A stretch of 64,000 nucleotides of DNA, from the NCBI GenBank assembly GCA_964556645.1, contig CAZKXC010000002.1, positions 14,496 to 78,495 of the forward strand, given 5' to 3'. This document shows positions 13,936 to 37,734 of the stretch, one piece after another (the stretch's first letter is position 1; the number at the start of each line of letters is the position of its first letter). A model generated the notes under the pieces. It worked only from the letters and a program-made list of their open reading frames with translations. It searched no databases and was not told the DNA's origin. Made by a program: the position numbers and the translations under genes. The DNA comes from an uncultured Halobellus sp. Its GTDB lineage: Archaea > Halobacteriota > Halobacteria > Halobacteriales > Haloferacaceae.

Positions 13936-13996
13936 ACGGGACACGACGGCGCGGGCGACTAAGCCCTTCCGGGGTCGCCTGCGACGCGCCCGCGGC

Positions 13997-20827: not shown

Positions 20828-22072
20828 ATGCCACGAACGATATCCGGCGAGCGGCTCAGAGACCGGTTCGACCGGTTCAACGAGATCGGCGCGACGGAAC
20901 GCGGCGGCGTGAACAGGCCGTCGCTCTCCGAGGCGAACGCGCGAGCGCGCGACACGCTGGTCGACTGGTTCGAGACCGCCGGACTCGCGGTCCGCGTCGA
21001 CGAGATGGGCAACATCTTCGGGCGGCGCGCCGGACGCGACGACGACCTCCCGCCGGTGTTGCTCGGCTCGCACGTCGACAGCCAGTACAACGGCGGCCGC
21101 TACGACGGCGTCATCGGCGTGCTCGGCGGTCTCGAGGTCGTCGAGACGCTCAACGACGCCGGCGTCGAGACGGAACGCCCGATCGAGGTGGTCTCGTGGA
21201 GCAACGAGGAGGGCGTCCGCTTTCAGCCCGACATGCTGGGCAGCGGGGTGTTCGCGGGCAAGTTCGACACGGCGTTCGCCCACTCGCTCGAGGACACGGG
21301 GGGACGCGTCTTCGGCGAGGAGCTCGAACGCATCGGCTACCGCGGGGAGACGCCGTGTGAACCCCGAGACCTCCACTGTTACCTCGAGCTCCACGTCGAG
21401 CAGGGACCGACGCTCGTAGACGCCGGTCTCAGCGTCGGCGTCGTTGAGGGCGTCTACGGCTTCGTCTGGTTCGACGCCGCGTTCACCGGCAGCGCGGACC
21501 ACGCCGGGCCGACGCCGATGGACCTCCGCAACGACGCACTGGTCGCGACGGGCGACGTGATCGAGGCGGTCCGGCGCATCGCCGGAACAGAAAGCGCCGA
21601 CCTCGTCGGCACCGTCGGCTCGGTCGACGTCTCGCCGAACGCGATCAACGTGATCCCGGAACGCGTGGAGTTCACCGTCGACCTCCGGTCGTACGACGAC
21701 GCCGCCGTCGACCGGGCGGCCGACCGGGTTCGCGAGGAGATCGACCACGCCGCGGCGCGCGAGGGGATCGCGGCCGAACACGAGGTGATCATGCGGATCG
21801 AATCCCAGTCGTTCGACGACGGCGTGATCGAGACGGTCGCCGACGCCGCCGACGCGCTCGACGCGGACGCCACCCGGCTCGTCAGCGGCGCGGGCCACGA
21901 CGCGAGCTACCTCAACCGGATCTGCCCCACCGGGATGATCTTCGTTCCCAGCGTCGACGGCGTCAGCCACACCGAAGCCGAGTTCACCGAGTGGTCGGAC
22001 GTCGTGACGGGCGTGAACGTGCTGTTGAACGCGGCGGTCGCACAGGCGACTGAACGGCCCGACGAGGCGTGA
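20828..22072 (+). CDS. M20 Zn-dependent hydrolase (N-carbamoyl-L-amino-acid/allantoate amidohydrolase family)
   Basis: GSHVDS, GRYDG, NEEG.RF, ELHVEQGP, HAG, SGAGHDA. Confidence 0.92.
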   Translation: MPRTISGERLRDRFDRFNEIGATERGGVNRPSLSEANARARDTLVDWFETAGLAVRVDEMGNIFGRRAGRDDDLPPVLLGSHVDSQYNGGRYDGVIGVLGGLEVVETLNDAGVETERPIEVVSWSNEEGVRFQPDMLGSGVFAGKFDTAFAHSLEDTGGRVFGEELERIGYRGETPCEPRDLHCYLELHVEQGPTLVDAGLSVGVVEGVYGFVWFDAAFTGSADHAGPTPMDLRNDALVATGDVIEAVRRIAGTESADLVGTVGSVDVSPNAINVIPERVEFTVDLRSYDDAAVDRAADRVREEIDHAAAREGIAAEHEVIMRIESQSFDDGVIETVADAADALDADATRLVSGAGHDASYLNRICPTGMIFVPSVDGVSHTEAEFTEWSDVVTGVNVLLNAAVAQATERPDEA

Positions 22073-22180
22073 GACGGCCTCCGTCCGCTCCTCGCGGAGT
22101 CGTGGGTCCCGTCCCGCCGCTGGCGCCCACTGAACATGATAGGGGCCGATCTTAAGCCGTGATGGGCGGAACGGCTCCGC

Positions 22181-23713
22181 ATGACGGACGAAACCGTGCT
22201 GCTGGGCGGCTTCTCACACGAGACGAACACGTTCGCCGACGGCACGACCGGCCGGCCGTTGTTTCAGGAGCGACGCGAGTACGTCGGCGAGGAGATCCCC
22301 GACCGGATGCGCGGAACCAACACCAACGAGGGCGGCGCCATCGACGCCGCCGACGCCGCGGGGATCGACCTCCGCTACACCGTCTCCGCGTCGGCCACGC
22401 CGAGCGGCGTCGTCGCCGCGGAGGCGTACCAGTTCTACACGGACCAGATTCTCGACGGGGTCGCCGACCACGCCGACGAGCTCGACGGCGTCTGTCTCTG
22501 TCTCCACGGAGCGATGGTCCCCGAAGGGATGGACGACGGCGAGGGACCGCTCGTGGCGTCGGTCCGCGACCGCGTGGGCCCGGACGTTCCGATCGCCGTG
22601 ACGCTCGACCTCCACGGCAACATCACGGACCAGCTCGTGCGGGAGGCGGACATCCTCGTCGCCTACGAGGAGTACCCGCACACGGACACCGGCGACACCG
22701 GCCGCCGCGCGATGCGGTTTCTCGCGCGGACGATGCGCGGCGAGCTCGACCCGGCGATGCACATCGAACGGCCGCCGGTGCTCGCGATGGGCCCCACACA
22801 GAACACGCGCGAGGGGCCGATGGCCGAGGTGATGGCGCTCGCCAGAGAGTACGAGCAGCGCGACGACGTGATCAAGGTGAACGTGTTTCCGGGGTTCCAC
22901 CAGGCCGACGTCCCTTCGGCCGGCTGCTCGGTGCCGGTCGTCGCCACGAACGCCGAGACCGCCACGGACGTCTCTCGAGAGATGGCCGAACACATCTGGG
23001 AGCGCAGAGACGACTTCGTCGCCGACTACCCTGACCCCGAAGAGGCGGTCGCGACGGCGATAGACCACGCGACCGACCTCGAAGACGATGACGGACCGAT
23101 CGTGTTGGCCGACGTCGGCGACAACCCCGGCGGCGGCGGCGCCGCCGACGGGACGACCGTGCTTCGAGAACTGCTCGACCAAGGGGCGACGAACGCCGGC
23201 TTCGCCATCATGCGCGACCCCGACGTGGTCGACACCTGCGTCGAGGCGGGCGTCGGCGAGCGGGTGACCGTCGACCTCGGAGGAAAAACCGACGACAGAC
23301 ACGGCGAGCCGATAACGGAACTCGACGGCTACGTGAAAGCGATCACCGACGGTGAGTTTCACAACACCGGCCCGATGGGGACCGGCAGCGAGAACCACCT
23401 CGGACGGACGGTCCACATGAACTGCGGCCACGACGACGGCGTGAGTGTTCTGTTGACGGAAAACCGACTTCAGCCTCTCGACGCCGAAATCTGGCGTCAT
23501 GCGGGCATCCAGCCCGAGCGGCTGGACACACTGGTGGTCAAAAGCATGAACCACTTTCGGGCGGATTATGAGCCCATGTCCAGCGAGGTTATTCCGATCA
23601 ACAGCATCGGCCTTTGTAGCATGGATCCCCGAAACTTCGAGTTCGACCGCATTCGCCGGCCGCAGTTCCCGCTCGACGACATGACAGACGACGACTACCC
23701 CGACTGGGCGTAG
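22181..23713 (+). CDS. M81 family metallopeptidase (MlrC-like)
   Basis: HETNTF, LHGAM, DLHGN, YPHTD, DNPGGG, VVKS..HFRA. CTTAAG lies 25-30 nt upstream of the ATG. Confidence 0.92.
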   Translation: MTDETVLLGGFSHETNTFADGTTGRPLFQERREYVGEEIPDRMRGTNTNEGGAIDAADAAGIDLRYTVSASATPSGVVAAEAYQFYTDQILDGVADHADELDGVCLCLHGAMVPEGMDDGEGPLVASVRDRVGPDVPIAVTLDLHGNITDQLVREADILVAYEEYPHTDTGDTGRRAMRFLARTMRGELDPAMHIERPPVLAMGPTQNTREGPMAEVMALAREYEQRDDVIKVNVFPGFHQADVPSAGCSVPVVATNAETATDVSREMAEHIWERRDDFVADYPDPEEAVATAIDHATDLEDDDGPIVLADVGDNPGGGGAADGTTVLRELLDQGATNAGFAIMRDPDVVDTCVEAGVGERVTVDLGGKTDDRHGEPITELDGYVKAITDGEFHNTGPMGTGSENHLGRTVHMNCGHDDGVSVLLTENRLQPLDAEIWRHAGIQPERLDTLVVKSMNHFRADYEPMSSEVIPINSIGLCSMDPRNFEFDRIRRPQFPLDDMTDDDYPDWA

Positions 23714-23878
23714 ACTCGCTGCGTCCTCTGCTGCCGGCAGGCCGGTTGGGGCCTCCAACTCACGGCACCCTCCGTGACTCACGTCGAGTGCGGCTACGCC
23801 GGGCCGTTCACCGACGAGAGGGCTTCCTGACGCGGCCCTCGACGAGTTCGAACTCCACTCTCACGATCACACCTGGCG

Positions 23879-24328
23879 TTATCGGGTGACCTCCTCGTAC
23901 GTGTTCCGCAGGACGTAGCTTCCGAACGTTCCCAAAGTCAGGAGCGTTATCGCTAGCAGGGTGAACAAGAACGCGTCCCGGAGCCCCGACAGATAGATGC
24001 CTCGTTGTACCGCAGGATCGTTGTACCAGCCGACGAGCGCGGGGAACGCGTAGCCGGCGAAGCCGGTCACGAACGCGACGAGAGACCCACCGAAGACGGT
24101 CATCAGTCGGTCGAACATTGACTCGGCGTAGTAGTCGACGTAGAATCCAAGCCCGACGACGCCGACGAGCGTGTACTTGTGAAGCGGAAGGGACGAAACG
24201 GGGTAGATGAGCACGTACGCGACCCAGCAGCCGGTGGTTATTCCGACTAACAGCGCTGCGAGGACGCTGCCGCGCCGGCCGCGGACGACCCACGCCACCG
24301 CGCTGGCTGCTGCCGTGGTGCCCGCCAC
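23879..24328 (-). CDS. Hypothetical membrane protein (about 149 aa, about 4 TM), last gene of the second dpp operon
   Basis: GTG start 1 nt after the dppF TGA; hydrophobic helices. The longer ORF-track version overlaps dppF. Confidence 0.75.
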   Translation of the reverse strand: MAGTTAAASAVAWVVRGRRGSVLAALLVGITTGCWVAYVLIYPVSSLPLHKYTLVGVVGLGFYVDYYAESMFDRLMTVFGGSLVAFVTGFAGYAFPALVGWYNDPAVQRGIYLSGLRDAFLFTLLAITLLTLGTFGSYVLRNTYEEVTR

Positions 24329-24329
24329 G

Positions 24330-25466
24330 TCAGTCGGCAAGCCCTTCCGACACGCCGTCGCCCTCCTCCTCCTCGAGTTCAACACGGCGGTGAGGATCGG
24401 TTTTCGCGTCCTCGGGCACGTCGTCAATCGCCCGCAGTTCCTGTTCGAACTCCGTTACGTCCTCGTCTTCGTAGTAGGCGTGACAGGCGACGCGCCGCTC
24501 GTTGTCGCGGATACTCAACAGCGGCGGATCGATGTGGTCACAGATGGCTTCCCGCTCGGGGCAGCGATCTTTGAACCGGCACCCGGTCGGGAGATTGATC
24601 GGGTCCGGAATGGAGCCACGTATCTCGACGTGTTCTCGCTCCCGGAACGGGTCTGGCTCCGGCGCCGCCCCGAGCAGCGCCTTCGAGTACGGGTGTACCG
24701 GCTCCTGTATCACCGTCTCTGTCTCGCCGAACTCGATGATGCGGCCCAGATACATGATACCGATGCGGTCACACACCTGCCGAAGCAGAGAGAGGTCGTG
24801 GCTGATGAACAGGATGGTGAGCCCCATCTCCTCGTTGAGCCGCTGAAGCAGGTTCAACACACCCGCCCGGATGCTCACGTCGAGCATCGACACCGGCTCG
24901 TCGGCCAACAGGAAATCCGGTTCCAGCACCAACGCTCGCGCGATGGCGACGCGTTGTTTCTCCCCGCCTGACAGCTGATGAGGATAGTTCTCCAGCCACG
25001 TCTCCGGCGGTGTGAGCTCAGCGCGTTCGAGTGCCTCGATAACTCGCGCGTAGCGCTCCTCGGCGTCGCCGATGCCGTGGATTTTCAGCGGCTCGACAAC
25101 CGTGTCGTACACCTTCATCCGCGGGTTGAGACTCTCGAAGGGATCCTGAAAGATGATCTGGACGTCGCGTCGGAACCGCTGGAGTTCCGCGCCAGAAATT
25201 TCGGTCACGTCCTCGCCACGGAACCGGATGGTGCCGTCGCTGGGCTCGAGCAATCGAATAAGCGTCTTGCCAGCGGTCGTCTTCCCACAGCCAGATTCTC
25301 CGGCCAGCCCGACGATCTCACCCTGCTCGATCTGGAGATCGATACCGTCGACAGCCTTCACGTGTTGTTCGTTGCCGATGAGGCTGTCGAGCAGCCCCTG
25401 TTGGGAGCTGAAGTATTTTTTCAACCCCGAACATTCCATGATATACTCCGCTTGGCTATCAGTCAT
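24330..25466 (-). CDS. dppF: Peptide ABC transporter ATP-binding protein (DppF)
   Basis: GESGCGKT, YPHQLSGGEKQR, ADEPVSMLD, HPYS, CRFKDRC, VACH. Confidence 0.95.
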   Translation of the reverse strand: MTDSQAEYIMECSGLKKYFSSQQGLLDSLIGNEQHVKAVDGIDLQIEQGEIVGLAGESGCGKTTAGKTLIRLLEPSDGTIRFRGEDVTEISGAELQRFRRDVQIIFQDPFESLNPRMKVYDTVVEPLKIHGIGDAEERYARVIEALERAELTPPETWLENYPHQLSGGEKQRVAIARALVLEPDFLLADEPVSMLDVSIRAGVLNLLQRLNEEMGLTILFISHDLSLLRQVCDRIGIMYLGRIIEFGETETVIQEPVHPYSKALLGAAPEPDPFREREHVEIRGSIPDPINLPTGCRFKDRCPEREAICDHIDPPLLSIRDNERRVACHAYYEDEDVTEFEQELRAIDDVPEDAKTDPHRRVELEEEEGDGVSEGLAD

Positions 25467-26547
25467 CGGTCCCCTCCGCGGCGATGGTGGCGTTGTCGTC
25501 CCGTGCTGTTTGCCAGGTGGAACGTTGTTTTGCTTCGGCCCGCATGCTTTCGATCCGCTCGTGATGGTAACACGCAGAGTAGTGGTCGTCAGCGACTTCT
25601 TCTAGCGGCGGATGAGCGTTCTCACATTCTTCGGTGGCGAACGGACACCGCTTCATAAACCGACAGCCGTCCGGCAGGTCGGCGATATCCGGCGGACTTC
25701 CCGGAATACTGATGAGATCTGACTGGTCGCCTCGAAGCGTCGGGAACGCGTTTTGCATCCCGAGCGTGTACGGGTTAAACGGATTCGCGAAGATGTCTCG
25801 GAGGTCGCCGTACTCCATCAGCTTTCCCGAGTACATTACGCCGAGGCGGTTACACGTCTCCGCAATGACGCTGATGTCGTGAGAGATGATGATAACCGAG
25901 ATATTCAGCTCATCTCGGAGCTCCTTCAATCGCTTCAGAATCTGGTCTTGTACGATGACGTCGAGCGCCGTCGTCGGCTCGTCGGCGATGATGAGGTCGG
26001 GATCCAGCGCCAGCGACATCGCGATGTACGCTCGTTGTTTCATCCCGCCGGAGAACTGGTGTGGATAGTCATCCATTCGCTCGGGATCTAATCCAACCGT
26101 CTCGAACAACTCGGCGGCGCGCTCGCGTGCCTCGTCGGTCGACACGTCGCGATGTGCTTGGATGGCTTCGACGATCTGACTGGAGATCCGGTGAACCGGG
26201 TTGAGAGCGTTCATCGCGCCCTGGCTGATGAGCGAGAGATGCTCCCAGCGTAACGCGTCGAGTTCACGCTTTTTCAGTTCAGTCATCTCGACGCCGCGGT
26301 ATTTGATCGAGCCGGCGTTTATACGCCCGTTGGACGGGAGCAGACCGAGTATCGCCTGTGCGACCGTGCTCTTGCCACAGCCGGATTCGCCGACGAGTCC
26401 GAATATCTCGTTCTCGTCGACGGAGAAGCTGATGTGATCGACCGCCGTCAGATCCCCGGCGCTCGTCTCGTATACAACTTCCACGTCGGTCACGTCGAGC
26501 AACGGTGCGTCGTCGTCAAATTCGAAGTCTGCGGTTGCTTGTTTCAT
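25459..26547 (-). CDS. dppD: Peptide ABC transporter ATP-binding protein (DppD)
   Basis: Start MKQATAD overlaps the dppC stop (TAATG); GESGCGKS, YPHQFSGGMKQR, ADEPTTALD. Confidence 0.95.
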   Translation of the reverse strand: MKQATADFEFDDDAPLLDVTDVEVVYETSAGDLTAVDHISFSVDENEIFGLVGESGCGKSTVAQAILGLLPSNGRINAGSIKYRGVEMTELKKRELDALRWEHLSLISQGAMNALNPVHRISSQIVEAIQAHRDVSTDEARERAAELFETVGLDPERMDDYPHQFSGGMKQRAYIAMSLALDPDLIIADEPTTALDVIVQDQILKRLKELRDELNISVIIISHDISVIAETCNRLGVMYSGKLMEYGDLRDIFANPFNPYTLGMQNAFPTLRGDQSDLISIPGSPPDIADLPDGCRFMKRCPFATEECENAHPPLEEVADDHYSACYHHERIESMRAEAKQRSTWQTARDDNATIAAEGTDD

Positions 26548-27488
26548 TATTTTTCTTGGAGCTGCGGGTTGACGACCTCCTCGTAGCCACGACCAACGAG
26601 ATACGCGCCCGTGACGACGAGGGTGATCGACACGCCCGGCGGGATGACCCACCACCATGCGGTGCCGAACGCCTGGGTGACGAACGCGCGCTGAAGCATC
26701 ACACCCCACGAGGGAACCGTCGGGTCACCGAAGCCGAGGAACGCAATACTCGCCTGTGCGACGATCGAGTAGCCAACCGCGATCGCGGCGTACAACGCGG
26801 ATAACGGGATGACGTTCGGGAGAATGTGGACGGCCATGATGCGGAAGTCACTCGCGCCGGCGGCTTGAGCGGCCTCCACGTACGGCCGTTCGCGCAAGGT
26901 AAGCACCTCTGAGCGTATCACCCGTGCGGTCGAGAGCCAGTACAACAACGCGATACCGAGGATGATGTTCCAGACGCTCGCGCCCAACACCGTCACGAGA
27001 ACGATGACGAACGGAATGAACGGCAGGCCGTAGAGCACGTCTACGACCCGCATGATTATCTCGTCGACCCAGCCGCCGTAGTAGCCGGCGACGACGCCGA
27101 GAGTGGTCCCGATAACGGCGACCATGAACGCGCCGAGTATGCCGACGAACATGGCGATGCGCGCTCCCAACAACAACTGCGAGAGCACGTCGTGAGCGGA
27201 CTCCGTCGTCCCGAGCGGATGGGCGGCCGACGGCGGTTGTAGCGAAGCCCACGAGCCGTCGGCCATATAAAGCCGCTCGTACGGCGCGTACGGGACGATG
27301 TACGGCGAGATGATCGCGATCAGTAAGTAAAACAGAATGATGATCAGGCCGGCGACCGCCATCTTCGAACGCACGAAGATGCGGCCCTGTTCGATGGTGC
27401 TCCGTTTGAGGTTCTGGACGAAGCGCTGCCATCCCTGTTTGGTCTCCCTCTGCCGCGGATCGCGCATCTGTGCGGTTTCTTCGCTCAT
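26547..27488 (-). CDS. dppC: Peptide ABC transporter permease (DppC)
   Basis: HPLGT, ARVIRSEVLTLRERPYVEAA, FLGFGDP..SWG, WWW..PPG. Confidence 0.93.
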   Translation of the reverse strand: MSEETAQMRDPRQRETKQGWQRFVQNLKRSTIEQGRIFVRSKMAVAGLIIILFYLLIAIISPYIVPYAPYERLYMADGSWASLQPPSAAHPLGTTESAHDVLSQLLLGARIAMFVGILGAFMVAVIGTTLGVVAGYYGGWVDEIIMRVVDVLYGLPFIPFVIVLVTVLGASVWNIILGIALLYWLSTARVIRSEVLTLRERPYVEAAQAAGASDFRIMAVHILPNVIPLSALYAAIAVGYSIVAQASIAFLGFGDPTVPSWGVMLQRAFVTQAFGTAWWWVIPPGVSITLVVTGAYLVGRGYEEVVNPQLQEK

Positions 27489-27489
27489 G

Positions 27490-28473
27490 TCAGCTTTCCT
27501 CCAGACGGACCCGTGGGTCCAGATACGAGTACGCCAGGTCGGCGAAGAAGTTCATCGTGATCACGATGATCGAGAGCAGCGTGAACGCACCCTGTGCGAC
27601 GGGGTAGTCGCTGCGGAGCGACGCTTTCACCATCTCCCGTCCCAACCCGGGCCAGGAGTACACCGTCTCGATGAGCACTTGTCCGCCGACGGCGAAGCCA
27701 ATCGCGATTGCGAACGCCGTCACGACCGGAAGAATCGCGTTCCGCGCGGCGTGTCTGAGCAGGATTCGTCGGTCCGTCAGTCCCTTCGCGCGCGCCGTGT
27801 CGATGTAGTCCTCCGAGAGCACTTCCAACAGGTTGTTTCGCATCAACAGAAGCGGCAGCCCGGTGTAGAACGTACACAGCGTGAACACCGGTAGGGCGAG
27901 ATGATACAGAAAGTCGGTGCTGAGGAACTTCTCGCCGACCGTCGAGTAGTCCGCCTGCATCCCTCGCATCCCGCCCAACGGGAACAGATCGAGTTGGAAC
28001 GAGAACAGATAGAGGACGATCATTCCCGTCCAGAAGACGGGCGTCGACCGGATGATGAGGACGATGAGCATTCCGAATCGCTCCCTGGTTGTCCCCCTGA
28101 CCCAGCCGAGCTGTGCGCCGAGGTAGGTGCCGACGGTGTACGAGATGAGGAACGCCGTCACCATCAGACTCATGGTGTTCAGGAAGCGGTCAGCGACGAG
28201 CGACCGGACGGACTCCCCGTAGTAGAACGACTGGCCGAAGTTCAACTGCAACACGTTCCAGATGTACAGGACGTACTGTTTCCAAAGCGGTTCGTTTAGA
28301 CCGTAGTCTTCGATAGCCGCCTGTCGTGCTGCCTCGTTCATCCGTGGACTCGTGATGGCTGCCATCGGGCCACCAGGGACCATGCGGAAGAGAAAGAACA
28401 GTATGGTGACGACTGTAAACAATGACAGCACCATCAACAACAGGCGTCGGGTTACGTATCGTTTGTTGACCAT
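27490..28473 (-). CDS. dppB: Peptide ABC transporter permease (DppB)
   Basis: FRMVPGGP, EDYIDTARAKGL, ETVYSWPGLG, DPRV. Confidence 0.93.
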   Translation of the reverse strand: MVNKRYVTRRLLLMVLSLFTVVTILFFLFRMVPGGPMAAITSPRMNEAARQAAIEDYGLNEPLWKQYVLYIWNVLQLNFGQSFYYGESVRSLVADRFLNTMSLMVTAFLISYTVGTYLGAQLGWVRGTTRERFGMLIVLIIRSTPVFWTGMIVLYLFSFQLDLFPLGGMRGMQADYSTVGEKFLSTDFLYHLALPVFTLCTFYTGLPLLLMRNNLLEVLSEDYIDTARAKGLTDRRILLRHAARNAILPVVTAFAIAIGFAVGGQVLIETVYSWPGLGREMVKASLRSDYPVAQGAFTLLSIIVITMNFFADLAYSYLDPRVRLEES

Positions 28474-28521
28474 TTATTTCGATGAGAGTTCGTGTGGCGG
28501 TGGAGAAATGCTCGGCGAAAA

Positions 28522-30291
28522 TTACTTTCCGGTCTTCCCTTCTGGGTAGTGGAGGTTTCCGTCGCCGTCCCAGACGTAGCCGGCGTCGGCGAGAATCTCG
28601 ATGGCGGCCTCGGTGCCGCCGTCGAAGTAGGTCGTTTCTGGGTTGTGCCAGAAGCTAAGCGAGGGATTGATCGGAGTCCGTGCCTGTTGTCCGAATCCCT
28701 CGTACAGCTCGTTGATTATCGTTTGTTGAGCGGCGGTGATCACCGCGTTCGTCGCCTGGCGCACTGCGACGTCGTCGAACGGCGGACGCTGGTTGTTGAG
28801 CCACGCACACTGCCGGCAGTCGTCGAGCGAGGAGAAGAACGTCAGGTGGTCCTGCTCGTCGCTGGTGTCCTTGAGCTGCTGTGGATCGCCGAACCAGTAG
28901 TCGAGCAGGTCGTAATCGCCGTTGATCATCGCCTGCATCTCCGCGTCACGCGTCGACAACGGCCGCTGGATCCGCGCGTCGATATTCGGCGCGGCGAACG
29001 CGTGGTCTTTGTACGCCGGCATCTCGAAGCGCGACCCCTGGTCCCACTCGCCCCACTGGAAGGGGCCAGAGCCGACGATCGGCTGGTCGTTGCTGATGTT
29101 GATGTTCCACGGCTGGTCCGTGTTGCCGGTGTCCTCCATGAGCTGTGTCCAGTAGTGCTCGGGAAGAATCGGCGTCGTTCCCGCGGTGATGAGAATAAAT
29201 GGCACGTACGGCTCCTGGAGGTTGAACGTCACCGACAGGTCGCCGTTGGCCTCGACGCTCTCGACGACCTCGACGACGCTGTTGAGGTACGCCGGCGGCT
29301 CCGTCTCCATGATCAACTCGAACGTCCACACCACGTCGGAGGCGGTGACGGGTTCGCCGTCGTGGAACGTCATTCCCTCCTTCAGCTCGAACGTCACCGT
29401 GGTGTCGTCCGACCAGTTCCATTCCGACGCGGCCCAGCCTGCTGGTTGGAGTTCGGGATCTGCCCGGACGAGGAAGTCGTGCATGAACCGCGTCGGCGTC
29501 CAGTTCCGGCTCGGGCCGACTCCGTTGATGTGGAGCGGATTGAGCTGGTCCGACGGGTCCCAGTTGTTGGTGACGATGGTGTTGCCCTCCTCGTTTTTGG
29601 GCTCGATCTGGGTGTAGTTCCAGATGTTCCGCATTCCGGAGACGTCCACGACCGTCGAGTCCTCCTCGAACCGGTCGGAGTTGAACGCGTACGTGTTCTT
29701 GTTGTAGAGGTACTGCGTCTCGGGGCGTTTCTCGCCGAGGATGTTCTGGGCCTCGTAGATGAGTTCCTGCCGCGCCTCCCTGTCGGTTTCCTGCCGCTGT
29801 GCCATCGCGACCTCGTTGTACCGCTCGTCGTTGAACCCCGCGTAGTTGGCGCTCCCGTCCTTGTGGAACCGGTTGACGATGATGCTGTCAGGCTCTCCGT
29901 TGTTCGCACACCAGTTGTACGTCACGAGGTCGAAATCGCCGTTGCTTTCGCGTTCTCTGAGCACGGTAAACTCGATCGGGTCGACCTCTGCCGGGATGCC
30001 GAGTTCCTCGTTGAGCCGCCTGTCGACCAGGACGTTCGCCTGGTAGCGCGCGGCGTAGTAGCGCTCCGTGTTGCTCACGTGGATGACCGGGTCCATCATC
30101 CGTTCCTCGGGCAGGTCTTCTTCGATAACTTTCGCGGTGTCGCTTCCGCCGCCGCCGCCACCGCTACCGCCGCCTGCCGGTTCACTCGAACACCCGGCGA
30201 TGCTGACGGCGCCGACCGCCGCGCCTGCCGCGCCCATCTTCCGCATGAATCCCCGCCTGTTCTCCCCCTCGCTGTGTCTATTGCTAGACAT
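28522..30291 (-). CDS. dppA: Family 5 ABC substrate-binding Tat lipoprotein (DppA-like)
   Basis: Tat and lipobox signal NRRGFMR...SIAGC, Gly-rich linker, FHDGEPVTASDV, GSGPF, PPFDDVAVRQA. Confidence 0.93.
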   Translation of the reverse strand: MSSNRHSEGENRRGFMRKMGAAGAAVGAVSIAGCSSEPAGGGSGGGGGGSDTAKVIEEDLPEERMMDPVIHVSNTERYYAARYQANVLVDRRLNEELGIPAEVDPIEFTVLRERESNGDFDLVTYNWCANNGEPDSIIVNRFHKDGSANYAGFNDERYNEVAMAQRQETDREARQELIYEAQNILGEKRPETQYLYNKNTYAFNSDRFEEDSTVVDVSGMRNIWNYTQIEPKNEEGNTIVTNNWDPSDQLNPLHINGVGPSRNWTPTRFMHDFLVRADPELQPAGWAASEWNWSDDTTVTFELKEGMTFHDGEPVTASDVVWTFELIMETEPPAYLNSVVEVVESVEANGDLSVTFNLQEPYVPFILITAGTTPILPEHYWTQLMEDTGNTDQPWNINISNDQPIVGSGPFQWGEWDQGSRFEMPAYKDHAFAAPNIDARIQRPLSTRDAEMQAMINGDYDLLDYWFGDPQQLKDTSDEQDHLTFFSSLDDCRQCAWLNNQRPPFDDVAVRQATNAVITAAQQTIINELYEGFGQQARTPINPSLSFWHNPETTYFDGGTEAAIEILADAGYVWDGDGNLHYPEGKTGK

Positions 30292-30315
30292 ACACACGGG
30301 TACGTGTCTCCATCT

Positions 30316-30325
30316 CATATAATAC
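30316..30325 (-). promoter_or_regulatory. TATA box of the second dpp operon
   Basis: Minus strand TATTATATG, about 25-33 nt upstream of ATG 30291. Confidence 0.55.
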
Positions 30326-30430
30326 TATCCCCTTTCATGAGAGGTACACGATTATTCAGGACGAGGCGCGCTCTACCGCCCTGATAGTATGCGTTCGCGT
30401 CGCCGTGGTTTCACGAGAAAGTGGGCGCTA

Positions 30431-30931
30431 CTACACCAGGTAGGCGTTGAGAATGGTCATGTTCGTGCTCAACCCCTCGACAGCGTCGTTGTGAGCGGTG
30501 AGCGCCTCGTGAGCGCGTTCGAACTTCGGCTCCGGATCAGCGTCAACCGCCTCCGGCCCCTCGTCTTCTAGCGAGTCGAGATTCGCTTCAACGATGTCGA
30601 GTGCGGTAGTCATCGCGTCGTGGAACGTCCGGAGATGATCGTTGTGGTCTCGGAGCTTTTCGACCGTCGCCTCTCGGTGGCGGACGGCTTGCTCTACCGT
30701 CAGAAACTCCGTACTGTCGACGATTTCTTCGATGTTCGATTCCTCGTCTTCGAGTTCGGTCTCCAGCCTGTCGAGTGCCTCGCGCTCTTTGAGGAGCGCA
30801 CTGCGTGTCTCGTCGAACGCCGTCGTCTCTCCGGCCTCGTAGGCGGCAAACTCCTCTTGAAACACGTCGCGTCGCTCGCTGTCGTGGCTTCCGACCTGTT
30901 CGGCGGCTTGGAGAATCTCGTGTAATCCCAT
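30431..30931 (-). CDS. Hypothetical acidic alpha-helical/coiled-coil protein
   Basis: 166-aa ORF with haloarchaeal D/E-rich composition and heptad-like pattern; no competing plausible frame. Confidence 0.75.
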   Translation of the reverse strand: MGLHEILQAAEQVGSHDSERRDVFQEEFAAYEAGETTAFDETRSALLKEREALDRLETELEDEESNIEEIVDSTEFLTVEQAVRHREATVEKLRDHNDHLRTFHDAMTTALDIVEANLDSLEDEGPEAVDADPEPKFERAHEALTAHNDAVEGLSTNMTILNAYLV

Positions 30932-31046
30932 AACGAGCGTCTCCGTCTCGCCGCTGTTGTAATTTTCGCCCGCCGTGCGGCCGTGTGGGGTCCCGGCTGT
31001 AACCGGCGGGCGAAGTTTTTAGCTCTTCGCTGGCACACCACACGGT

Positions 31047-31871
31047 GTGCAACTCCGAATTCGCGCCCCGCAGTACACCGGCCCCAACCGCTGCTGGCCG
31101 TGTACTGTCCTCAACGTCGGTATCGTTCTTCTCGGCGGAGCGGTGCTGACGACCGTCGCCGGCGTGATGGCAGCGCTCCCGGCGGTCGTCGTCGGTCTCA
31201 CAGCCGTCTGGCTCAGGGGGTACCTCGTTCCCGGAACGCCCCGCCTTGGTCGACGGCTTCCCCAGCCGGTGCGGTCGTGGTTCGGCACGCACGACCCCGT
31301 GGCGGAGCGACCGGCAGCCGACGCGCTCGTTGCTGCCGGCGTGCTCGACACGGACCTCGTTCTCACTCCCGAGGCGAACGCGACGATACAAGCACGAGCG
31401 AGCAGCTACGTCGACGACCGCGAGGCGTTAGAGACCGCCGCGTTGACCGAGTTCGACGCGACGACGGTTTCTGTCAACCGTCGGCTCGGCGGCGGAGAAC
31501 GCTGGTTCGTTCTCGACGATTCCGAACGAACCGTCTGTCAGTGGGGAGCACGGCCGGTCGCGGCGCTCGACGTCGCCGGTGCGGCGTACCTCGACGACCG
31601 GCTCCCGGACTGGGACGGGCGGGGAGAGCGCGAGCGGTCGACGATGCTCGCGTTGCTCCGCTACGGGACACCGAACTGCCCTGACTGTGGCGCCGCGTTC
31701 GAGTCGACAGAACGAGACGTCACCTGTTGTGGCGGTCGGTCGCTCGCGGGCGCACGCCGGTGTGCCGAGTGCGATTACGCGCTCGTCGACCGAAACGACC
31801 TCCCGGCCCAAACGGTCGAAAAGACACCGGAGAACCAGGGGGAAAGCCCGCAGGCAGGGGTCGGAGAGTGA
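31047..31871 (+). CDS. Hypothetical membrane-anchored Cys-rich (Zn-ribbon) protein
   Basis: PQYTGPNRCWPC, two TM segments, WLRGYLVPGTP, C-terminal CPDC...TCC...CAEC. Confidence 0.8.
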   Translation: MQLRIRAPQYTGPNRCWPCTVLNVGIVLLGGAVLTTVAGVMAALPAVVVGLTAVWLRGYLVPGTPRLGRRLPQPVRSWFGTHDPVAERPAADALVAAGVLDTDLVLTPEANATIQARASSYVDDREALETAALTEFDATTVSVNRRLGGGERWFVLDDSERTVCQWGARPVAALDVAGAAYLDDRLPDWDGRGERERSTMLALLRYGTPNCPDCGAAFESTERDVTCCGGRSLAGARRCAECDYALVDRNDLPAQTVEKTPENQGESPQAGVGE

Positions 31872-32311
31872 GAACCACCCGCCTGCTCGTGACGGCGTCG
31901 TTGCTGTTTTTCACTCTCGTTTCCGTGGGCGTCGTTGCGGAGGCCGAGCGCAACTACGCGACGGTAGCCGAACGAGACGATTCGACCGCGGCGGTCGACG
32001 ACGTCGCACTCGATGATGGACTCGAGTTATCGATACGGGTGTACAACTCGATGAACCGACCGCTGCGCGTTCAGTACGTCAACATCGACCTCTCTCACGA
32101 CGAGGGACGCGGTGGGTCGAGCACCCCGTACAACGGCTACCGAACGGTCGACCCCGGAGCGGAGACGCTGACGGTCTCGGTTCCGGAGCGACTGATGGGT
32201 GGGTCCCTTTCTCGAGGCGACACCGTCAGGCTTCGCGGCACCGTCGTCGTGGAAGTGTACAACAACTACCGGTTCGACATTCCGATCGAGCCGACGGAGG
32301 TGACGCTGTGA
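31868..32311 (+). CDS. Hypothetical protein with N-terminal anchor/signal and beta-rich (LEA-2/Ig-like) domain
   Basis: GTGA overlap with the upstream stop; MRTTRLLVTASLLFF..., LSIRVYNSMNRPLRVQYV. Confidence 0.72.
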   Translation: MRTTRLLVTASLLFFTLVSVGVVAEAERNYATVAERDDSTAAVDDVALDDGLELSIRVYNSMNRPLRVQYVNIDLSHDEGRGGSSTPYNGYRTVDPGAETLTVSVPERLMGGSLSRGDTVRLRGTVVVEVYNNYRFDIPIEPTEVTL

Positions 32312-32661
32312 GCAGAGACGAGACCGATGACCGACAAGAAGAGTACGCCGGCTGGGAACTCCCAGGACAGTCGAGCGAGGACGAGGATGGACCGGGAGGC
32401 GAGGCCGCCGGCCCCTCACACGCCGAGGAGGAACCGGTCGGGCCGCCTCCAAAAATGCGCGATCAGATCCTTCGAGACCGAATCCGAGACCGCCTCGGCG
32501 TCACTCCACGACAGTGGTACGTCGCCGAGACGGTGTTGTTGGTCCTGCCGTACCCGTTGTTCGTCTTCGTGTACCTCAGCTTCGACGTGGCTGAGACGCC
32601 GTTTCTCCTCGTGACGCTCGGCTACTCGCTGGTCGCGATGTACTTCGGTCTTCTCTCGTGA
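32308..32661 (+). CDS. Hypothetical protein with acidic N-terminus and 2 C-terminal TM helices
   Basis: GTGA overlap with the upstream stop; GGAGGTGA Shine-Dalgarno-like sequence upstream. Confidence 0.75.
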   Translation: MSRDETDDRQEEYAGWELPGQSSEDEDGPGGEAAGPSHAEEEPVGPPPKMRDQILRDRIRDRLGVTPRQWYVAETVLLVLPYPLFVFVYLSFDVAETPFLLVTLGYSLVAMYFGLLS

Positions 32662-32735
32662 CCCGGAGGCCTGCTCGAAACAAGGACCCTCGTTTTGTTT
32701 CCGAACCCACCGATATCCTCGGTCGGAGCAGGGGT

Positions 32736-32749
32736 ACTGTTTAATCAGT
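32736..32749 (+). promoter_or_regulatory. TATA box of the D-aminoacylase operon within a near-palindrome (candidate operator)
   Basis: ACTG-TTTAAT-CAGT; TTTAAT lies 25-30 nt upstream of ATG 32770. Confidence 0.5.
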
Positions 32750-32769
32750 TGCGCACGGGCGTTAGTCCG

Positions 32770-34365
32770 ATGACACACGACGCTATTCTGCGAAACGGCC
32801 GAATCGTGGACGGCACCGGCTCCCCGTGGCACCGCGGCGACGTCGCGATCGCCGACGGCCGGATCGCCGCGGTCGGCGCGGTCGACGCGGACGGGGCCGT
32901 CGAGGTCGACCTCGACGGCGACGTCGTCGCGCCGGGATTCATCGACATCCACACCCACTCGGATTTCACCCTGCCGGCGAACCGGGACGCCCACAGCAAG
33001 GTCAGACAGGGCGTGACACTCGAGATCGTCGGCAACTGTGGGACGAGCGCGGCGCCGCGATACGGCTCCGCGTCCCGCTCCGTCGACGACTGGTTCGCGA
33101 GCAGGGGGCTCGACGACGCGGTCGATCCCACGGCGTGGGAGTCGATGGCCGGCTACCTCGAGTACCTCGCGTCGGACGGCGTCTCGCTCAACGTCGGGTC
33201 GCTCGTCGGACACGGCAACGTCCGCGCGGCCGTCGTCGGCTACGAGGACCGTGCTCCCTCGCCCGACGAACTCGACGAGATGCGGGCGCTCGTCGCCGAG
33301 GCGATGGCGGACGGCGCGGTCGGACTCTCCACCGGGCTGTTTTACTCGCCGGGCTCGTACGCCGACGTCGACGAGGTGGTGGCGCTCGCCGAAGTGGCGG
33401 CCGACCACGGCGGCTTCTACGCCACGCACATGCGCTCGGAGAGCGACGAGCTCGTGGCGAGCGTGCGAGAAACCATCGAGATCGGGCGTCGGGCGGACGT
33501 TCCGGTGCAGATCTCCCATCACAAGGCCGTCGGCCCCGACAACTGGGGGCTGGTTCGAGCGACCCTCCGCCGGATGGAGCTGGCCCGCCGCCGCGAGGGC
33601 ATCGACGTGCAGTGTGACCAGTATCCGTACGTCGCTTCCTCGACGAGCCTCGGGGCGATCCTCCCCAACTGGGCTCACGACGGCGGCGACGACGCGCTCC
33701 TCGACCGACTCCGCGATCCCGAGACCCGCGCCCGCATCCGCGAGGAGGTGAAATCGGGTCGCACGGCCGACTGGGACGGCGTCCTCGTCGCGGGCGTCCA
33801 GAACCCCGATCTGAAGTCGTACGAGGGGAAGACGCTTGCCGAGCTCGCGTCCCGGGACGGCGAGGAGCGCTCGCCGGTCGAGATGCTTCTCGACATCGTG
33901 CTCGAAGACGAAAACCGGACCATGCACGTCAGCTTCGGCATGGACGAGACGGACGTCCGAACGGTGATGCGGCACGACCTCACCATGGTCGGCAGCGACG
34001 GCTCCTCGCTGCGGCCGACCGGCCCGCTCGGAGACGGGGTGCCGCACCCGCGCAACTACGGCACGTTCCCCCGCGTGCTCGGCCACTACGCCCGCGACGA
34101 GGAGGTGCTCTCGCTCGAGCGTGCCGTCCACAAGATGACCGGCATGCCCGCCGCGCGGCTGGGGCTCGACGACCGCGGCGTGGTGAAACGGGACGCCCGC
34201 GCCGACCTGACGGTGTTCGACCCCGACACCGTCGCAGAGACCGGCGACTTTCTCGACCCCGCCGTGTATCCCGCCGGCATCGACCACGTGCTCGTCAACG
34301 GCGAGTTCGTCGTGCGCGACGGCGACCACACCGGCGAGCGGCCCGGAGACGTGATCGGCGCATGA
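32770..34365 (+). CDS. N-acyl-D-amino-acid deacylase (D-aminoacylase, amidohydrolase superfamily)
   Basis: GRIVDGTG, PGFIDIHTHSD, GNCG, THMRSE, SHHK, DQYPY, GSDG, HPRNYGTFPRVLG; metal ligands intact. Confidence 0.93.
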   Translation: MTHDAILRNGRIVDGTGSPWHRGDVAIADGRIAAVGAVDADGAVEVDLDGDVVAPGFIDIHTHSDFTLPANRDAHSKVRQGVTLEIVGNCGTSAAPRYGSASRSVDDWFASRGLDDAVDPTAWESMAGYLEYLASDGVSLNVGSLVGHGNVRAAVVGYEDRAPSPDELDEMRALVAEAMADGAVGLSTGLFYSPGSYADVDEVVALAEVAADHGGFYATHMRSESDELVASVRETIEIGRRADVPVQISHHKAVGPDNWGLVRATLRRMELARRREGIDVQCDQYPYVASSTSLGAILPNWAHDGGDDALLDRLRDPETRARIREEVKSGRTADWDGVLVAGVQNPDLKSYEGKTLAELASRDGEERSPVEMLLDIVLEDENRTMHVSFGMDETDVRTVMRHDLTMVGSDGSSLRPTGPLGDGVPHPRNYGTFPRVLGHYARDEEVLSLERAVHKMTGMPAARLGLDDRGVVKRDARADLTVFDPDTVAETGDFLDPAVYPAGIDHVLVNGEFVVRDGDHTGERPGDVIGA

Positions 34366-35498
34366 GCGCCCGCGTGACGGCCGTCGAGACGGTGCCGGTG
34401 TCGGTGCCGACGGAAACCGCCTACGAGACGAGCCTCTCGATCGCGGCCGGCGAGGCGGAGTCGTACGACCACGTGCTGGTTCGCGTCGAGACCGACGCCG
34501 GCGTCACGGGTCTCGGCGAGGTCGCGCCGCTCCCGACGTGGCCGCACGGCCTGACGCAGTCGGCCGTCGTGGACCTGATCGCCGACCGTCTCGCGCCGCG
34601 TCTCGAGGGGGAGTCGCTCGACCGGATTCCCCGGCTCGTCGACCGGGCGGAGCGAGCGCTCTCCGACGAGCCGTTCCCGCTCTGTGGCGTCGACGTCGCG
34701 TTGTACGACGCGCTGGGAAAGACGCGCGACCTCCCGGTGTACGACCTGCTCGGCGGCGCTCCGGACGGCGAGGCGGCGATCGACTTGCACTACTCCATCG
34801 GGATCCGCCCCCCGGCGGAGGTTCGCGACCTGGCCGTCGAGGCCCGCGACGACGGGTTCACGGCGTTCAAAGTGAAGGTCGGCGGTCCGGACTTCCCGGC
34901 CGAGCGGGAGGCGATCGCGGCGATCGCGGACGCGGTGCCCGACGCCCGGATTCGCGTCGACGCCAACCAGGGGTGGTCGGCCGCCGAGGCGGTGCGTCGC
35001 GTCCCGCTTCTCGACGCCGACGCCGACGGGCTCGTGTTGGTCGAACAACCCGTCCCCTCCGACGACATCGCGGGGCTCCGGCGGGTGCGGGAGGCGACCG
35101 GCGTCCCGGTGTTGGCGGACGAGGCCTGCTTCTCGCCGGCGGACGTCGCCACGCTCGCCGCCCGCGACGCCTGTGACCTCGTCAACATCAAGCTCGCGAA
35201 GACGGGCGGGCTCACCCGCGCACGCGACGTCGCGACCGTCGCGGACGCCCACGGACTCCCCTGTTTCATGGGGAGCATGCTCGAACTCGGCGTCGGCACG
35301 GCCGCGAACGCGCACTTCGCGGCGTCGTCGCCGGCGGTCAGTTATCCGACCGGCGTGTTGAACGTCCACGCGGCGTCGACGCTGATCGACGCGCCGGAGG
35401 CGTGGTCGCCCGCCGGAGACCGGTTCACCGTCCCGGACGCGCCGGGTCTCGGCGTGACTCTCGACGACGCGGCGGTCGAGCGCTACCGCACCGACTGA
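34362..35498 (+). CDS. Enolase-superfamily (MLE subgroup) racemase/cycloisomerase of unknown substrate
   Basis: KVK, DAN, EQP, DE, NIKLAKTGG, GSMLE. ATGA overlap with the D-aminoacylase. Confidence 0.85.
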   Translation: MSARVTAVETVPVSVPTETAYETSLSIAAGEAESYDHVLVRVETDAGVTGLGEVAPLPTWPHGLTQSAVVDLIADRLAPRLEGESLDRIPRLVDRAERALSDEPFPLCGVDVALYDALGKTRDLPVYDLLGGAPDGEAAIDLHYSIGIRPPAEVRDLAVEARDDGFTAFKVKVGGPDFPAEREAIAAIADAVPDARIRVDANQGWSAAEAVRRVPLLDADADGLVLVEQPVPSDDIAGLRRVREATGVPVLADEACFSPADVATLAARDACDLVNIKLAKTGGLTRARDVATVADAHGLPCFMGSMLELGVGTAANAHFAASSPAVSYPTGVLNVHAASTLIDAPEAWSPAGDRFTVPDAPGLGVTLDDAAVERYRTD

Positions 35499-35593
35499 GC
35501 CGCCGCCGGACCGAGCCGGATCGGGCGCGGCTCGGAAACCCATCATGAAAGGCTGTGGGGTTTTGTCACACAGGGCGGTACGTGGCTCAGACG

Positions 35594-36682
35594 ATGAACG
35601 TTCGAAACGCCTTCGACGCGCCCGTTCCCACGGTCGTTCTCGCGGAGGGCGAGTTCGGGAAGACGGGCGGGAAGACCGCGAACGGGGTCGTCACACACAG
35701 CGAGGTGTTCGACGCCCGGGCCGTGGTCGACTCGACGACCGCGGGCCAGACGGCGGCCGACGTGCTCTGTCAGCCCGGCACACCGGACGTCCCGATCGTG
35801 GAGTCGGTCTCCGCCGCCCTCGATATCGCACCCGACGCCGAGGCGCTCGTCATCGGCGTCGCGCCCGCCGGAGGCCAACTTCCCGATCCGTGGGTCGACG
35901 AGATCGAAGACGCCGTGCGGGCCGGCTGTGATATCGTCTCCGGGCTCCACGTCTTTCTCGGCGACGACGACGAGTGGGCGAGCCTGGCGGCCGCTCACGA
36001 CGCGCGGATCTTCGACGTGCGAAAACCGCCCGCCGAAGAGGCGCTTCGCGTCGGCGACGGCTCGGTCGACGACGTCGACGCCGACGTCGTGCTCACGCTC
36101 GGCACCGACTGTGCGGTCGGAAAACGCACCACGACGTTCGAGCTGTACCGGTCGGCGCGGGACGCCGGGCTGAACGCCGGCTGGGTCGCGACCGGTCAGA
36201 CCGGGATCATGGTGGGGGCTCACGCCGGGGCGGTCATCGACCGGGTGCCGGCCGACTTCACCGCCGGCGTCGTCGAAGACCTGGTGGCGTCGGTGGCCGC
36301 CGACGCCGACCTCGTCTTCGTCGAGGGACAGGCGTCGCTCACCCACCGGGCGTACTCCGGTGTCACGCTCGGGATCCTCCACGGCGCCTGGCCGGACGCG
36401 GTGGTTCTCGCCGACGACCCGGACCGTGTCGGCCGGACGCACTTCGACCGGTTCGCCGTCGACGGCGTCGACACGGAGGCCGCGCTCATCGAGGAGCTCT
36501 CGGACGCGGTCGTCGCCGCGATCTCGACGTGGGGTGACCCCGAGACGGCGCGGGACCGCCACGGGCTGCCGGCGGCGAACGTGTACGAGGACGGGGGTGC
36601 CGACGCCCTCCTCGACGCGGTTCGGGACGCGCTGGCGTCGCCGGCGAAGCCCCCCGCCGAGCCGAGCGAGGGTGAGCGATGA
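35594..36682 (+). CDS. dgcN: DUF1611 family protein (DgcN-like D-amino-acid N-acetyltransferase)
   Basis: GKTANG, IGVAPAGG, SGLH, DVRKPP, GTDCAVGKRTT, ATGQTGI, VEGQASL.H.AY. The DgcN function is assigned by family, not verified here. Confidence 0.82.
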   Translation: MNVRNAFDAPVPTVVLAEGEFGKTGGKTANGVVTHSEVFDARAVVDSTTAGQTAADVLCQPGTPDVPIVESVSAALDIAPDAEALVIGVAPAGGQLPDPWVDEIEDAVRAGCDIVSGLHVFLGDDDEWASLAAAHDARIFDVRKPPAEEALRVGDGSVDDVDADVVLTLGTDCAVGKRTTTFELYRSARDAGLNAGWVATGQTGIMVGAHAGAVIDRVPADFTAGVVEDLVASVAADADLVFVEGQASLTHRAYSGVTLGILHGAWPDAVVLADDPDRVGRTHFDRFAVDGVDTEAALIEELSDAVVAAISTWGDPETARDRHGLPAANVYEDGGADALLDAVRDALASPAKPPAEPSEGER

Positions 36683-37734
36683 GCTCCGTCGTCGACGTCG
36701 CCGTCGAGCCGCTCGACCTGCCGTTGTCGGAGCCGTTCGAGATCTCGCTCGGCGTTCAACACGCCGCCTCGAACGTGCTCGTGACCGTCGAGACGGAGGC
36801 GGGGATCACGGGATACGGCGAGGGCTCGCCGCTCCCGCCGGTGACCGGCGAGACGCAGGAGGCGGCGGTCGCGACGGCCCGGGCGGCCGCCGACGTCGTC
36901 GAGGGACGCGCGGTCGGCGACTACCGACGCATCGTCGACGACCTCCGACACACGTTTCCGGGCGCCGCATCGGCGACGTTCGCCGTCGAGACGGCCGTCC
37001 TCGACGCGTTCTGTCGGGAACGCGAGCTACCGTTCTCGGAGCTGTTCGGCGGCCCGCCGTCGCCCGTCGAGACCGACATGACGATCCCCATCGTCTCGCC
37101 CGAGACCGCCGGCGAACGAGCACAGGCCGCCGTCGACCGAGGGTACGAACACCTCAAGATCAAGACCGGCACCGACGTCGCCGCCGACGTCGAGCGGGTG
37201 GCCGCGGTCGGGACGGTCGCGCCGGACGCGCCGATAACGGTCGACGCCAATCAGGGCTGGACCCCGAAGGAGACGGCGCGGTTCGCCGACCGACTCGCCG
37301 ACCGAGACGTCCGGATAGACCTGATCGAACAACCCGTGCCGGCGAGCGACCTCGCCGGGCTCGCGGACGCCCGCCGCCGCGTCGACGTTCCCGTCGCGGC
37401 CGACGAGGCGGTGTTCACGCCACAGGACGCGGTTCGGGTCGTCCGAAACGACGCGGCCGACGTGATCAACGTCAAACTCGGGAAATCCGGGCCGCTGGCG
37501 GCCGCCGACATCGCCGCGATCGCGAGGGGTGCGGACCTCGATCTCATGGTCGGGTGTATGCTGGAGAGCGCGATCGGCATTCACGCCAGCGCGCACGTCG
37601 TCGCCGGCAGCGGCGCGTTCTCGTACGTCGATCTCGACGGGAACCGGCTGCTCGCCGCGGACGTCGTCGATCTCGACGACGGTCCGGTCCACGAGATCGC
37701 CGGGCCCGGACACGGCATCACGCCGGAGCGTTGA
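36679..37734 (+). CDS. Dipeptide epimerase / N-acetyl-D-amino-acid racemase (AEE/DgcA-like)
   Basis: PFEISLG, KIK, DANQGW, EQP, DE, NVKLGK, GCMLES and the DxD motif (VDLDG). ATGA overlap with DUF1611. Confidence 0.88.
   Translation: MSSVVDVAVEPLDLPLSEPFEISLGVQHAASNVLVTVETEAGITGYGEGSPLPPVTGETQEAAVATARAAADVVEGRAVGDYRRIVDDLRHTFPGAASATFAVETAVLDAFCRERELPFSELFGGPPSPVETDMTIPIVSPETAGERAQAAVDRGYEHLKIKTGTDVAADVERVAAVGTVAPDAPITVDANQGWTPKETARFADRLADRDVRIDLIEQPVPASDLAGLADARRRVDVPVAADEAVFTPQDAVRVVRNDAADVINVKLGKSGPLAAADIAAIARGADLDLMVGCMLESAIGIHASAHVVAGSGAFSYVDLDGNRLLAADVVDLDDGPVHEIAGPGHGITPER

Follow-up and report, generated by a model that had tools for sequence, protein, structure and literature searches.

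A recurrent haloarchaeal gene island with a Dpp-type importer, a D-aminoacylase homologue and a DgcN/DgcA-like pair: a candidate system for D-residue peptides

The window analysed here, a 64,000-nucleotide stretch of contig CAZKXC010000002.1 (C2) from an uncultured Halobellus sp., carries two facing sets of genes that a first-pass annotation had read as a system for scavenging D-amino acids and D-residue peptides. The source is a metagenome-assembled genome (88% complete, 169 contigs, 2.46 Mb), in which C2 is a contig of high G+C content (GC). Scans with Pfam and NCBIfam placed every gene that the annotation had named. On the plus strand, a D-aminoacylase homologue (DAA, 32770-34365), recognised by sequence search of the PDB, is followed by MLE2 (34362-35498), an MLE-subgroup enzyme of the enolase superfamily with the Pfam domains MR_MLE_N and MR_MLE_C and no DxD motif. 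Next come a DUF1611 protein (35594-36682; DUF1611_N, 102.6 bits, and DUF1611_C, 200.4 bits) and EPI (36679-37734), a dipeptide-epimerase-like member of the same superfamily that has the DxD motif and was assigned by NCBIfam and motif alignment. Homologue alignments begin at ATG 32770 in DAA and at ATG 35594 in the DUF1611 protein, so these are the likely true starts of reading frames that open at 32695 and 35555. Both translationally coupled pairs proposed earlier are real: 4-nt ATGA overlaps can be read directly in the DNA at 34362-34365 (DAA/MLE2) and 36679-36682 (DUF1611/EPI), and the gap from MLE2 to the probable DUF1611 start is 95 bp. A convergent gene of 738 amino acids forms the right-hand boundary of the island.

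The minus strand carries an importer operon headed by u166 (30431-30931), which encodes an acidic soluble protein. It continues with a Tat-lipoprotein substrate-binding protein of the Pfam family SBP_bac_5 (SBP, 28522-30291), the permease genes dppB (27490-28473) and dppC (26547-27488), whose products have BPD_transp_1 together with OppC_N or BPD_transp_1_N, and the ATPase genes dppD (25459-26709, its start probably lying near 26556) and dppF (24330-25466), both with ABC_tran and oligo_HPY. Two permeases, two oligo_HPY ATPases and a family-5 SBP together make up a Dpp/Opp-type ATP-binding cassette (ABC) importer.

To follow these genes beyond the window, 200 Halobacteria genomes were searched with the window DUF1611 protein, and the bit scores of the matches split into two groups. 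Proteins of the window type (at least 443 bits, 61-78% identity) are present in about 33 of the 200 genomes, and in only 4 of the 23 genomes of the same genus. We fetched 20 kb around all 34 copies of this type and searched these neighbourhoods with the window proteins, using gene calls based on third-position GC and local BLAST; the caller is weak on lower-GC genomes (Haladaptatus, Natronocalculus). EPI directly follows DUF1611 in 29 of the 34 loci, and a divergent HTH_10 regulator is the commonest further neighbour of the pair (22/34). The order dppFDCB-SBP-u166 facing (u274-u194-)u117-DAA-MLE2-DUF1611-EPI is shared by four Halorubrum species (L034-37), Halolamina (L041/L071, L067, L069, L070), Haladaptatus litoreus and a plasmid of H. 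pallidirubidus (L072-73), the dpp orthologues in syntenic loci being 78-94% identical. Finding one gene order in three genera takes the grouping beyond chance. An M81 metallopeptidase gene follows dppF in all the loci long enough to show it, namely in L034-L037 (Halorubrum) and L067 (Halolamina), and is also found in L156. One Halolamina locus (L067, G110:C1:2527350-2547250) has lost MLE2, and its DUF1611 protein lacks the N-terminal 150 residues, only residues 155-364 matching; this island looks like a decaying copy.

Beyond M81, the four Halorubrum loci and the one Halolamina locus that extend this far carry a second D-aminoacylase paralogue (DAA2), followed in Halorubrum by a pyridoxal-phosphate enzyme of the D-Ser-dehydratase / 3-hydroxy-D-aspartate-aldolase (BhcC-like) family. 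The genome of the window also carries these two genes, on other contigs. The set is rearranged in Halorubrum sp. JWXQ-INN 858, where S15-M19-DAA2-M81-MLE2-DAA-SBP-dppBCDF-u166 precedes an HTH_10 gene facing DUF1611-EPI, all within ~25 kb. That the linkage survives this rearrangement argues for a shared function. The idea of fully separable modules was dropped when DUF1611-EPI was found 9 kb downstream in the extended locus of this strain. An organisation in two branches, which the first-pass annotation had thought likely, fits the same locus, in which DUF1611-EPI has its own HTH_10 regulator. The co-conservation anticipated for the cluster was thus observed in three genera for the importer, the accessory genes, DAA, MLE2, DUF1611 and EPI, and for M81 where the loci reach it, but not for an M20 amidohydrolase described below.

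The DUF1611/EPI pair had been matched to DgcN-DgcA(-DgcH), a route of D-glutamate catabolism reportedly described in Pseudoalteromonas sp. CF6-2 by Yu et al. in 2023. According to a passage of PMC12363236 that cites this work, the pathway also occurs in Halobacteria. Against the NCBIfam model of DgcN (NF041892), the window DUF1611 protein scores 182.2 bits, below the cut-off of 480, and covers profile positions 53-261 of 326. Its PDB matches include TM0796 (209 bits) and 7xrj (118.6 bits), the latter of which we take to be DgcN. A second DUF1611-epimerase pair is encoded in the same genome (C42:54-2158, minus strand; locus L003), beside genes for ApbC, ribosomal protein S2 and enolase. The C42 DUF1611 protein reaches 251.8 bits against DgcN, also below 480, and 176.7 bits against 7xrj. 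DgcA is the best family of the C42 epimerase (253.5 bits, under the cut-off of 400), whereas for EPI the DgcA model (NF042940) ranks third, with 180.5 bits. A DUF1611 match of any kind was obtained in 183 of 201 genomes, most of which carry the 215-250-bit type of C42 alone, and the C42-type pair is near-universal in the Halobacteria sampled.

The proposed equation with DgcN-DgcA therefore did not hold, since the C42 pair scores better and is near-universal, and both pairs remain under the equivalog cut-offs. Window-type proteins are named by NCBI merely as 'DUF1611 domain-containing protein', and a literature search on DUF1611 returned nothing informative. The window DUF1611/EPI is a paralogous subfamily of the DgcN/DgcA-like pair and not an orthologue, and its substrate is probably not D-Glu. 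It has in common with DgcN-DgcA(-DgcH) the coupling of DUF1611 to an enolase-superfamily racemase and the proposed logic, in which a D-amino acid would be acylated, its N-acyl form racemised and the product deacylated. It differs in forming a distinct paralogous subfamily (at 182 bits against 480 for DgcN and 180 against 400 for DgcA), and in being joined to a D-aminoacylase homologue, a second racemase, M81 and a peptide-type ABC importer.

The best NCBIfam match of EPI is the Thermotoga-type L-Ala-D/L-Glu epimerase (281.8 bits, cut-off 500). Alignment with YkfB and TM0006 revealed that KIK, DANQGW, EQP, ADE, NVKLGK and DLD are all kept, so that EPI shares KxK, DxD, the Asp/Glu/Asp metal ligands and the second catalytic Lys with characterised dipeptide epimerases, against which it scores 190-206 bits. 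It differs from them at Gly25, which occupies the position of YkfB Arg24, the 20s-loop Arg holding the Glu side chain, and in its obligate DUF1611 partner; characterised dipeptide epimerases are not known to be obligately paired with DUF1611.

The other coupled pair joins DAA to MLE2. Members of the DAA family are said, after Cummings et al. in 2009, to cleave N-acyl-D-amino acids and in some cases L-Xaa-D-Yaa dipeptides. In the PDB, DAA matches 1m7j with 322 bits (E 6e-95) and 3gip with 288 bits. The residues that define D-acylases according to a 2025 structural study, namely HxH, a bridging Cys, two His, a catalytic Asp, the Tyr of YPY and a carboxylate Arg (PMC12149444), all align in DAA with 1m7j and 9g5m, the D-acylases of A. 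faecalis and K. pneumoniae. The mobile specificity domain (DAA residues 320-381) is longer than in these enzymes and unalignable, which makes the side-chain preference of DAA unreadable; the counterpart of Bb3285 Arg295, a specificity residue, could not be placed in the alignment to D-acylases. DAA thus keeps all catalytic and ligand-binding residues of characterised D-aminoacylases (288-322 bits), and is set apart from them by its archaeal origin, its longer mobile alpha/beta domain and its position as the natural operon partner of a racemase. The pairing of a D-acylase with N-succinylamino-acid racemase (NSAR) is already an industrial process (PMC12149444).

MLE2 keeps the KxK motif and the D, E, D and K residues, while in MLE2 and its orthologues the alignment has PTGVLN in place of DLD, so that MLE2 lacks the DxD motif of dipeptide epimerases. 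It stays below the cut-offs of the menC models, which cover NSAR and o-succinylbenzoate synthase (TIGR01928, 103 against 200.65; TIGR01927, 102 against 130.55), and reached no cut-off in NCBIfam. Orthologues were found in only 9 of the 200 other genomes, and the bacterial matches (at most 38% identity) are generic dipeptide-epimerase-like genes. Loci of Natrarchaeobaculum and Halostella (L158:10663-15299, L159:2731-9392 and L160) combine an MLE2 homologue (53-54% identity) with a Dpp importer, ChlI- and ChlD-like genes and two unknown genes of ~357 and ~150 amino acids, a combination that is undescribed.

The SBP of the importer departs from the canonical family-5 topology, which is colinear with the Pfam profile and with the structures of DppA, OppA and NikA. 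Profile positions 3-285 fall on its residues 293-588 and positions 296-367 on residues 86-157, the protein ending at residue 598. In BLASTP comparison with a canonical haloarchaeal SBP of 539 amino acids, its N-terminal part aligned with residues 395-515 and its C-terminal part with residues 102-377. A model computed with AlphaFold2 from 60 aligned sequences, with a predicted local distance difference test score (pLDDT) of 90.8, aligned with DppA, NikZ and AppA over residues 237-598 only (~1-350 of their chains; Z 22-25), with Foldseek query TM-scores of merely 0.37-0.47. Among the top 50 matches, no PDB entry was colinear with the whole model. Sequence and model agree that the window SBP is circularly permuted relative to the family-5 (Dpp/Opp/Nik) fold, opening with what are canonically the C-terminal ~150 residues. 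Haloarchaea and several bacteria, e.g. Caldalkalibacillus, Tindallia and Vreelandella, have colinear homologues. A paralogue with the same permuted order is encoded immediately upstream of the window (G000:C2, about 13056-14552); outside the window itself, it is the SBP of a second dppBCDF operon located at 85-4156 on the plus strand and of lower GC (0.635).

Two further plus-strand genes, both classified by Pfam, NCBIfam and PDB sequence searches, encode hydrolases on the far side of dppF. The cytoplasmic, MlrC-like metallopeptidase at 22181-23713 has the Pfam domains DUF1485 (331 bits) and MlrC_C (199 bits) and matches 3iuu (181 bits) and microcystinase C (7ylq, 178 bits) in the PDB. It obtained 194 bits from the NCBIfam MlrC model, for which the exception level is 999, and would thus be a member of family M81, but not MlrC itself. 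The M20 gene (20783-22072) encodes an L-carbamoylase-like amidase of the hydantoinase/carbamoylase family that exceeds the subfamily cut-offs of NF006769 (499.6 against 452) and TIGR01879 (419.1 against 204) and matches the N-carbamoyl-L-amino-acid hydrolase 8apz with 336 bits. This amidohydrolase had been counted as a part of the system. It adjoins the island here, yet no orthologue was present in any of the 34 related loci searched with the window proteins, which rules it out as a conserved cluster member.

Outside the recurrent order, the window-type pair occurs in other contexts, in which the importer beside it varies (another Dpp, an APC amino-acid permease or an NhaC-like carrier). In L045 and L059, the pair stands beside a different Dpp, a D-aminoacylase paralogue and an M19 dipeptidase, accompanied in L045 by a beta-lactamase-fold protein with a Pab87 octamerisation domain (Pab87-type S12 peptidase). 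A D-aminoacylase paralogue lies immediately 3' of EPI in L049; in L062 and L066, DUF1611 is accompanied by an amino-acid permease and an M20 enzyme of the ArgE/DapE type, and L038 and L055 add an acyl-CoA ligase. D-aminoacylase-family genes were found within 20 kb in 9 of the 34 loci, against a chance of ~1.6% per locus estimated from the two D-aminoacylase copies in the 2.46-Mb genome, a comparison that is not a formal test because the loci are related. The M19, Pab87-type S12 and D-aminoacylase families include enzymes acting on D-residue peptides. The D-residue theme of the first-pass annotation was thus strengthened by neighbours seen only in relatives, namely DAA2, the BhcC/D-Ser-dehydratase-like gene, M19 and the Pab87-type S12 peptidase. 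Poly-gamma-glutamate, which had been suggested as a substrate, gained no specific support, since the neighbours examined included no gamma-glutamyl hydrolase.

Five small genes, none belonging to a recognised family, accompany the importer and the enzymes. Upstream of DAA and on the same strand lie u274 (31047-31871), u194 (31727-32311) and u117 (32308-32661), all three predicted from their translations to encode small membrane proteins. The u274 product has two predicted membrane helices and C-terminal CxxC pairs, and the protein atlas links it to archaeal DUF8054 (score 0.96). The three genes are kept in Halolamina and Haladaptatus, and u117 also in Halorubrum. The u166 gene is kept in place in every syntenic locus with 58-69% identity (39% in the rearranged genome); neither Pfam nor NCBIfam assigned its product to a family, and the protein atlas gave no lead. 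A small minus-strand gene without a Pfam family, located 3' of dppF (23882-24373), is 68% identical to the gene at the same position in the Halolamina locus L067.

Base composition sets a part of the island apart. The GC content is 0.60-0.61 over the dpp part, compared with about 0.70 around it, with a lower third-position GC as well, and 0.60-0.64 over positions 24000-32600, a range that takes in the small accessory genes as well as the dpp operon. Together with the patchy distribution (4 of 23 congeners for the window-type DUF1611) and the plasmid copy in H. pallidirubidus, this low GC fits a horizontally mobile accessory island of ~15 kb. A 99%-identical stretch is present in 'uncultured archaeon A07HR67', and the nearest named relatives of the window proteins are Halorubrum species.

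The analysis shows the gene identities, the active-site motifs, the conserved linkage and the paralogy to the DgcN/DgcA-like pair. From these we infer a route whose substrates, stereochemistry, sequence of reactions and use of M20 are all proposals. The permuted Tat-lipoprotein SBP and DppBCDF would import the substrate, which cytoplasmic M81 and DAA would cut, freeing a D-amino acid. The DUF1611 protein may then N-acylate this D-amino acid from acyl-CoA, like DgcN, and the coupled DxD epimerase may invert its alpha-carbon, like DgcA. An L-specific deacylase, here maybe the adjoining M20 carbamoylase-type enzyme, would finally free the L-amino acid. MLE2 would racemise a different substrate without a free N-terminal amine, possibly an N-acyl amino acid. 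A comparable arrangement is that of E. coli ddpXABCDF, which encodes a D,D-dipeptide permease and the DdpX dipeptidase. Both systems encode a Dpp-type importer together with an enzyme for D-residue dipeptides, in our case a putative one; they differ in their hydrolase families, and the inversion module is present only in the window island.

We give about even chances to the reading that the island uses D-residue-containing small peptides or N-acyl amino acids. This part of the original proposal was supported by the co-conserved genes and by the D-themed neighbours in relatives, while the DgcN-DgcA identity, the M20 amidohydrolase and poly-gamma-glutamate were given up. Several observations weigh against it. 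The best NCBIfam match of the SBP is a nickel-type SBP, far under the cut-off (112 against 600); the D-aminoacylase family has homologues that remove acetyl groups from carbohydrates (9kb1 and 9kb3 in the PDB, 252-255 bits against DAA); and M20 has no orthologue in the related loci. The four most distant MLE2 orthologues (53-59% identity) occur without DAA and without window-type DUF1611, and three of these four adjoin another Dpp, a similarly ordered SBP and ChlI/ChlD-like AAA+/VWA genes. Because these loci lack DAA and window-type DUF1611, the importer-MLE2 core may serve a chemistry other than that of D-peptides. In addition, deacylation and acylation of D-amino acids by enzymes of a single operon would amount to a futile cycle unless the two enzymes prefer different acyl groups.

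Some of these observations feed a rival reading without D-residues, in which diverged enzymes would act on N-acylated or N-carbamoylated osmolytes, on opine- or metallophore-type ligands, or on ordinary L-peptides. We consider it rather unlikely. The structure matches of the family-5 SBP bind peptides, nickel chelates, opines and sugars, a range that accommodates this reading as readily as do the nickel-type NCBIfam match, the distant MLE2 homologues beside Dpp and ChlI/ChlD-like genes, the carbohydrate de-N-acetylases of the D-aminoacylase family and the carbamoylase type of the adjoining M20. It is countered by DAA, which retains the Tyr and Arg that bind the alpha-carboxylate and all other D-acylase hallmarks, and by independent neighbours in relatives, drawn from families with D-specific members (BhcC-like, M19, Pab87-type S12, DAA2). 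Furthermore, of the pairs in this set, only DUF1611 with its epimerase has a published function, namely the inversion of D-amino acids.

That published function could also be taken literally: the window pair would be the very pathway of DgcN and DgcA, by which D-Glu undergoes N-acetylation, racemisation and deacetylation, and the role of the other genes would be no more than to supply D-Glu. The two families and their translational coupling are indeed the same, and the passage of PMC12363236 places the pathway in Halobacteria. This reading is nevertheless improbable, since the C42 pair is closer both to DgcN (252 against 182 bits; 177 against 119 for 7xrj) and to DgcA (253.5 against 180.5), most of the 183 matching genomes among 201 carry the C42 type while the window type is confined to about 33 of 200, and both pairs lie under the equivalog cut-offs (480 and 400). 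The Gly of EPI where YkfB has the Arg24 of the Glu side chain, and the bare NCBI label 'DUF1611 domain-containing protein', point the same way. Least credible, and in our view very hard to sustain, is an assembly of neighbours by chance or by island building, with no common pathway. M20 is not conserved with the rest, DUF1611-EPI is found in many other contexts, and the window's genome has its DAA2 and BhcC-like genes on other contigs, all of which would suit it; set against this are a gene order shared across three genera, in one case on a plasmid, a linkage kept after rearrangement, and two translational couplings with just 95 bp between the pairs. The window island is most likely a variant of the known D-glutamate route, and not that route itself.

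Bacterial cell-wall D-amino acids form a large, poorly used pool of nitrogen and carbon in saline waters. A more specific and more tentative version of the D-residue reading, to which we give well under even chances, is that wall-less haloarchaea feed on bacterial D-residue peptides, such as muropeptides or lipopeptide debris, by means of a transferable island with three undescribed parts: a class of permuted SBP tuned to D-peptides, a natural D-acylase/racemase tandem, and an acylate-then-invert pair for a substrate other than D-Glu beside the near-universal one. Cultured strains such as Halorubrum cibi, H. aethiopicum, Halolamina pelagica and Haladaptatus litoreus carry the island, which makes the proposal directly testable. 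If the proposal holds, haloarchaea would possess at least two inversion modules of the DgcN/DgcA type with different substrates, the inversion chemistry would be tied to the uptake and hydrolysis of D-residue peptides, and the D-acylase/racemase pairing of industry would have a counterpart in nature.

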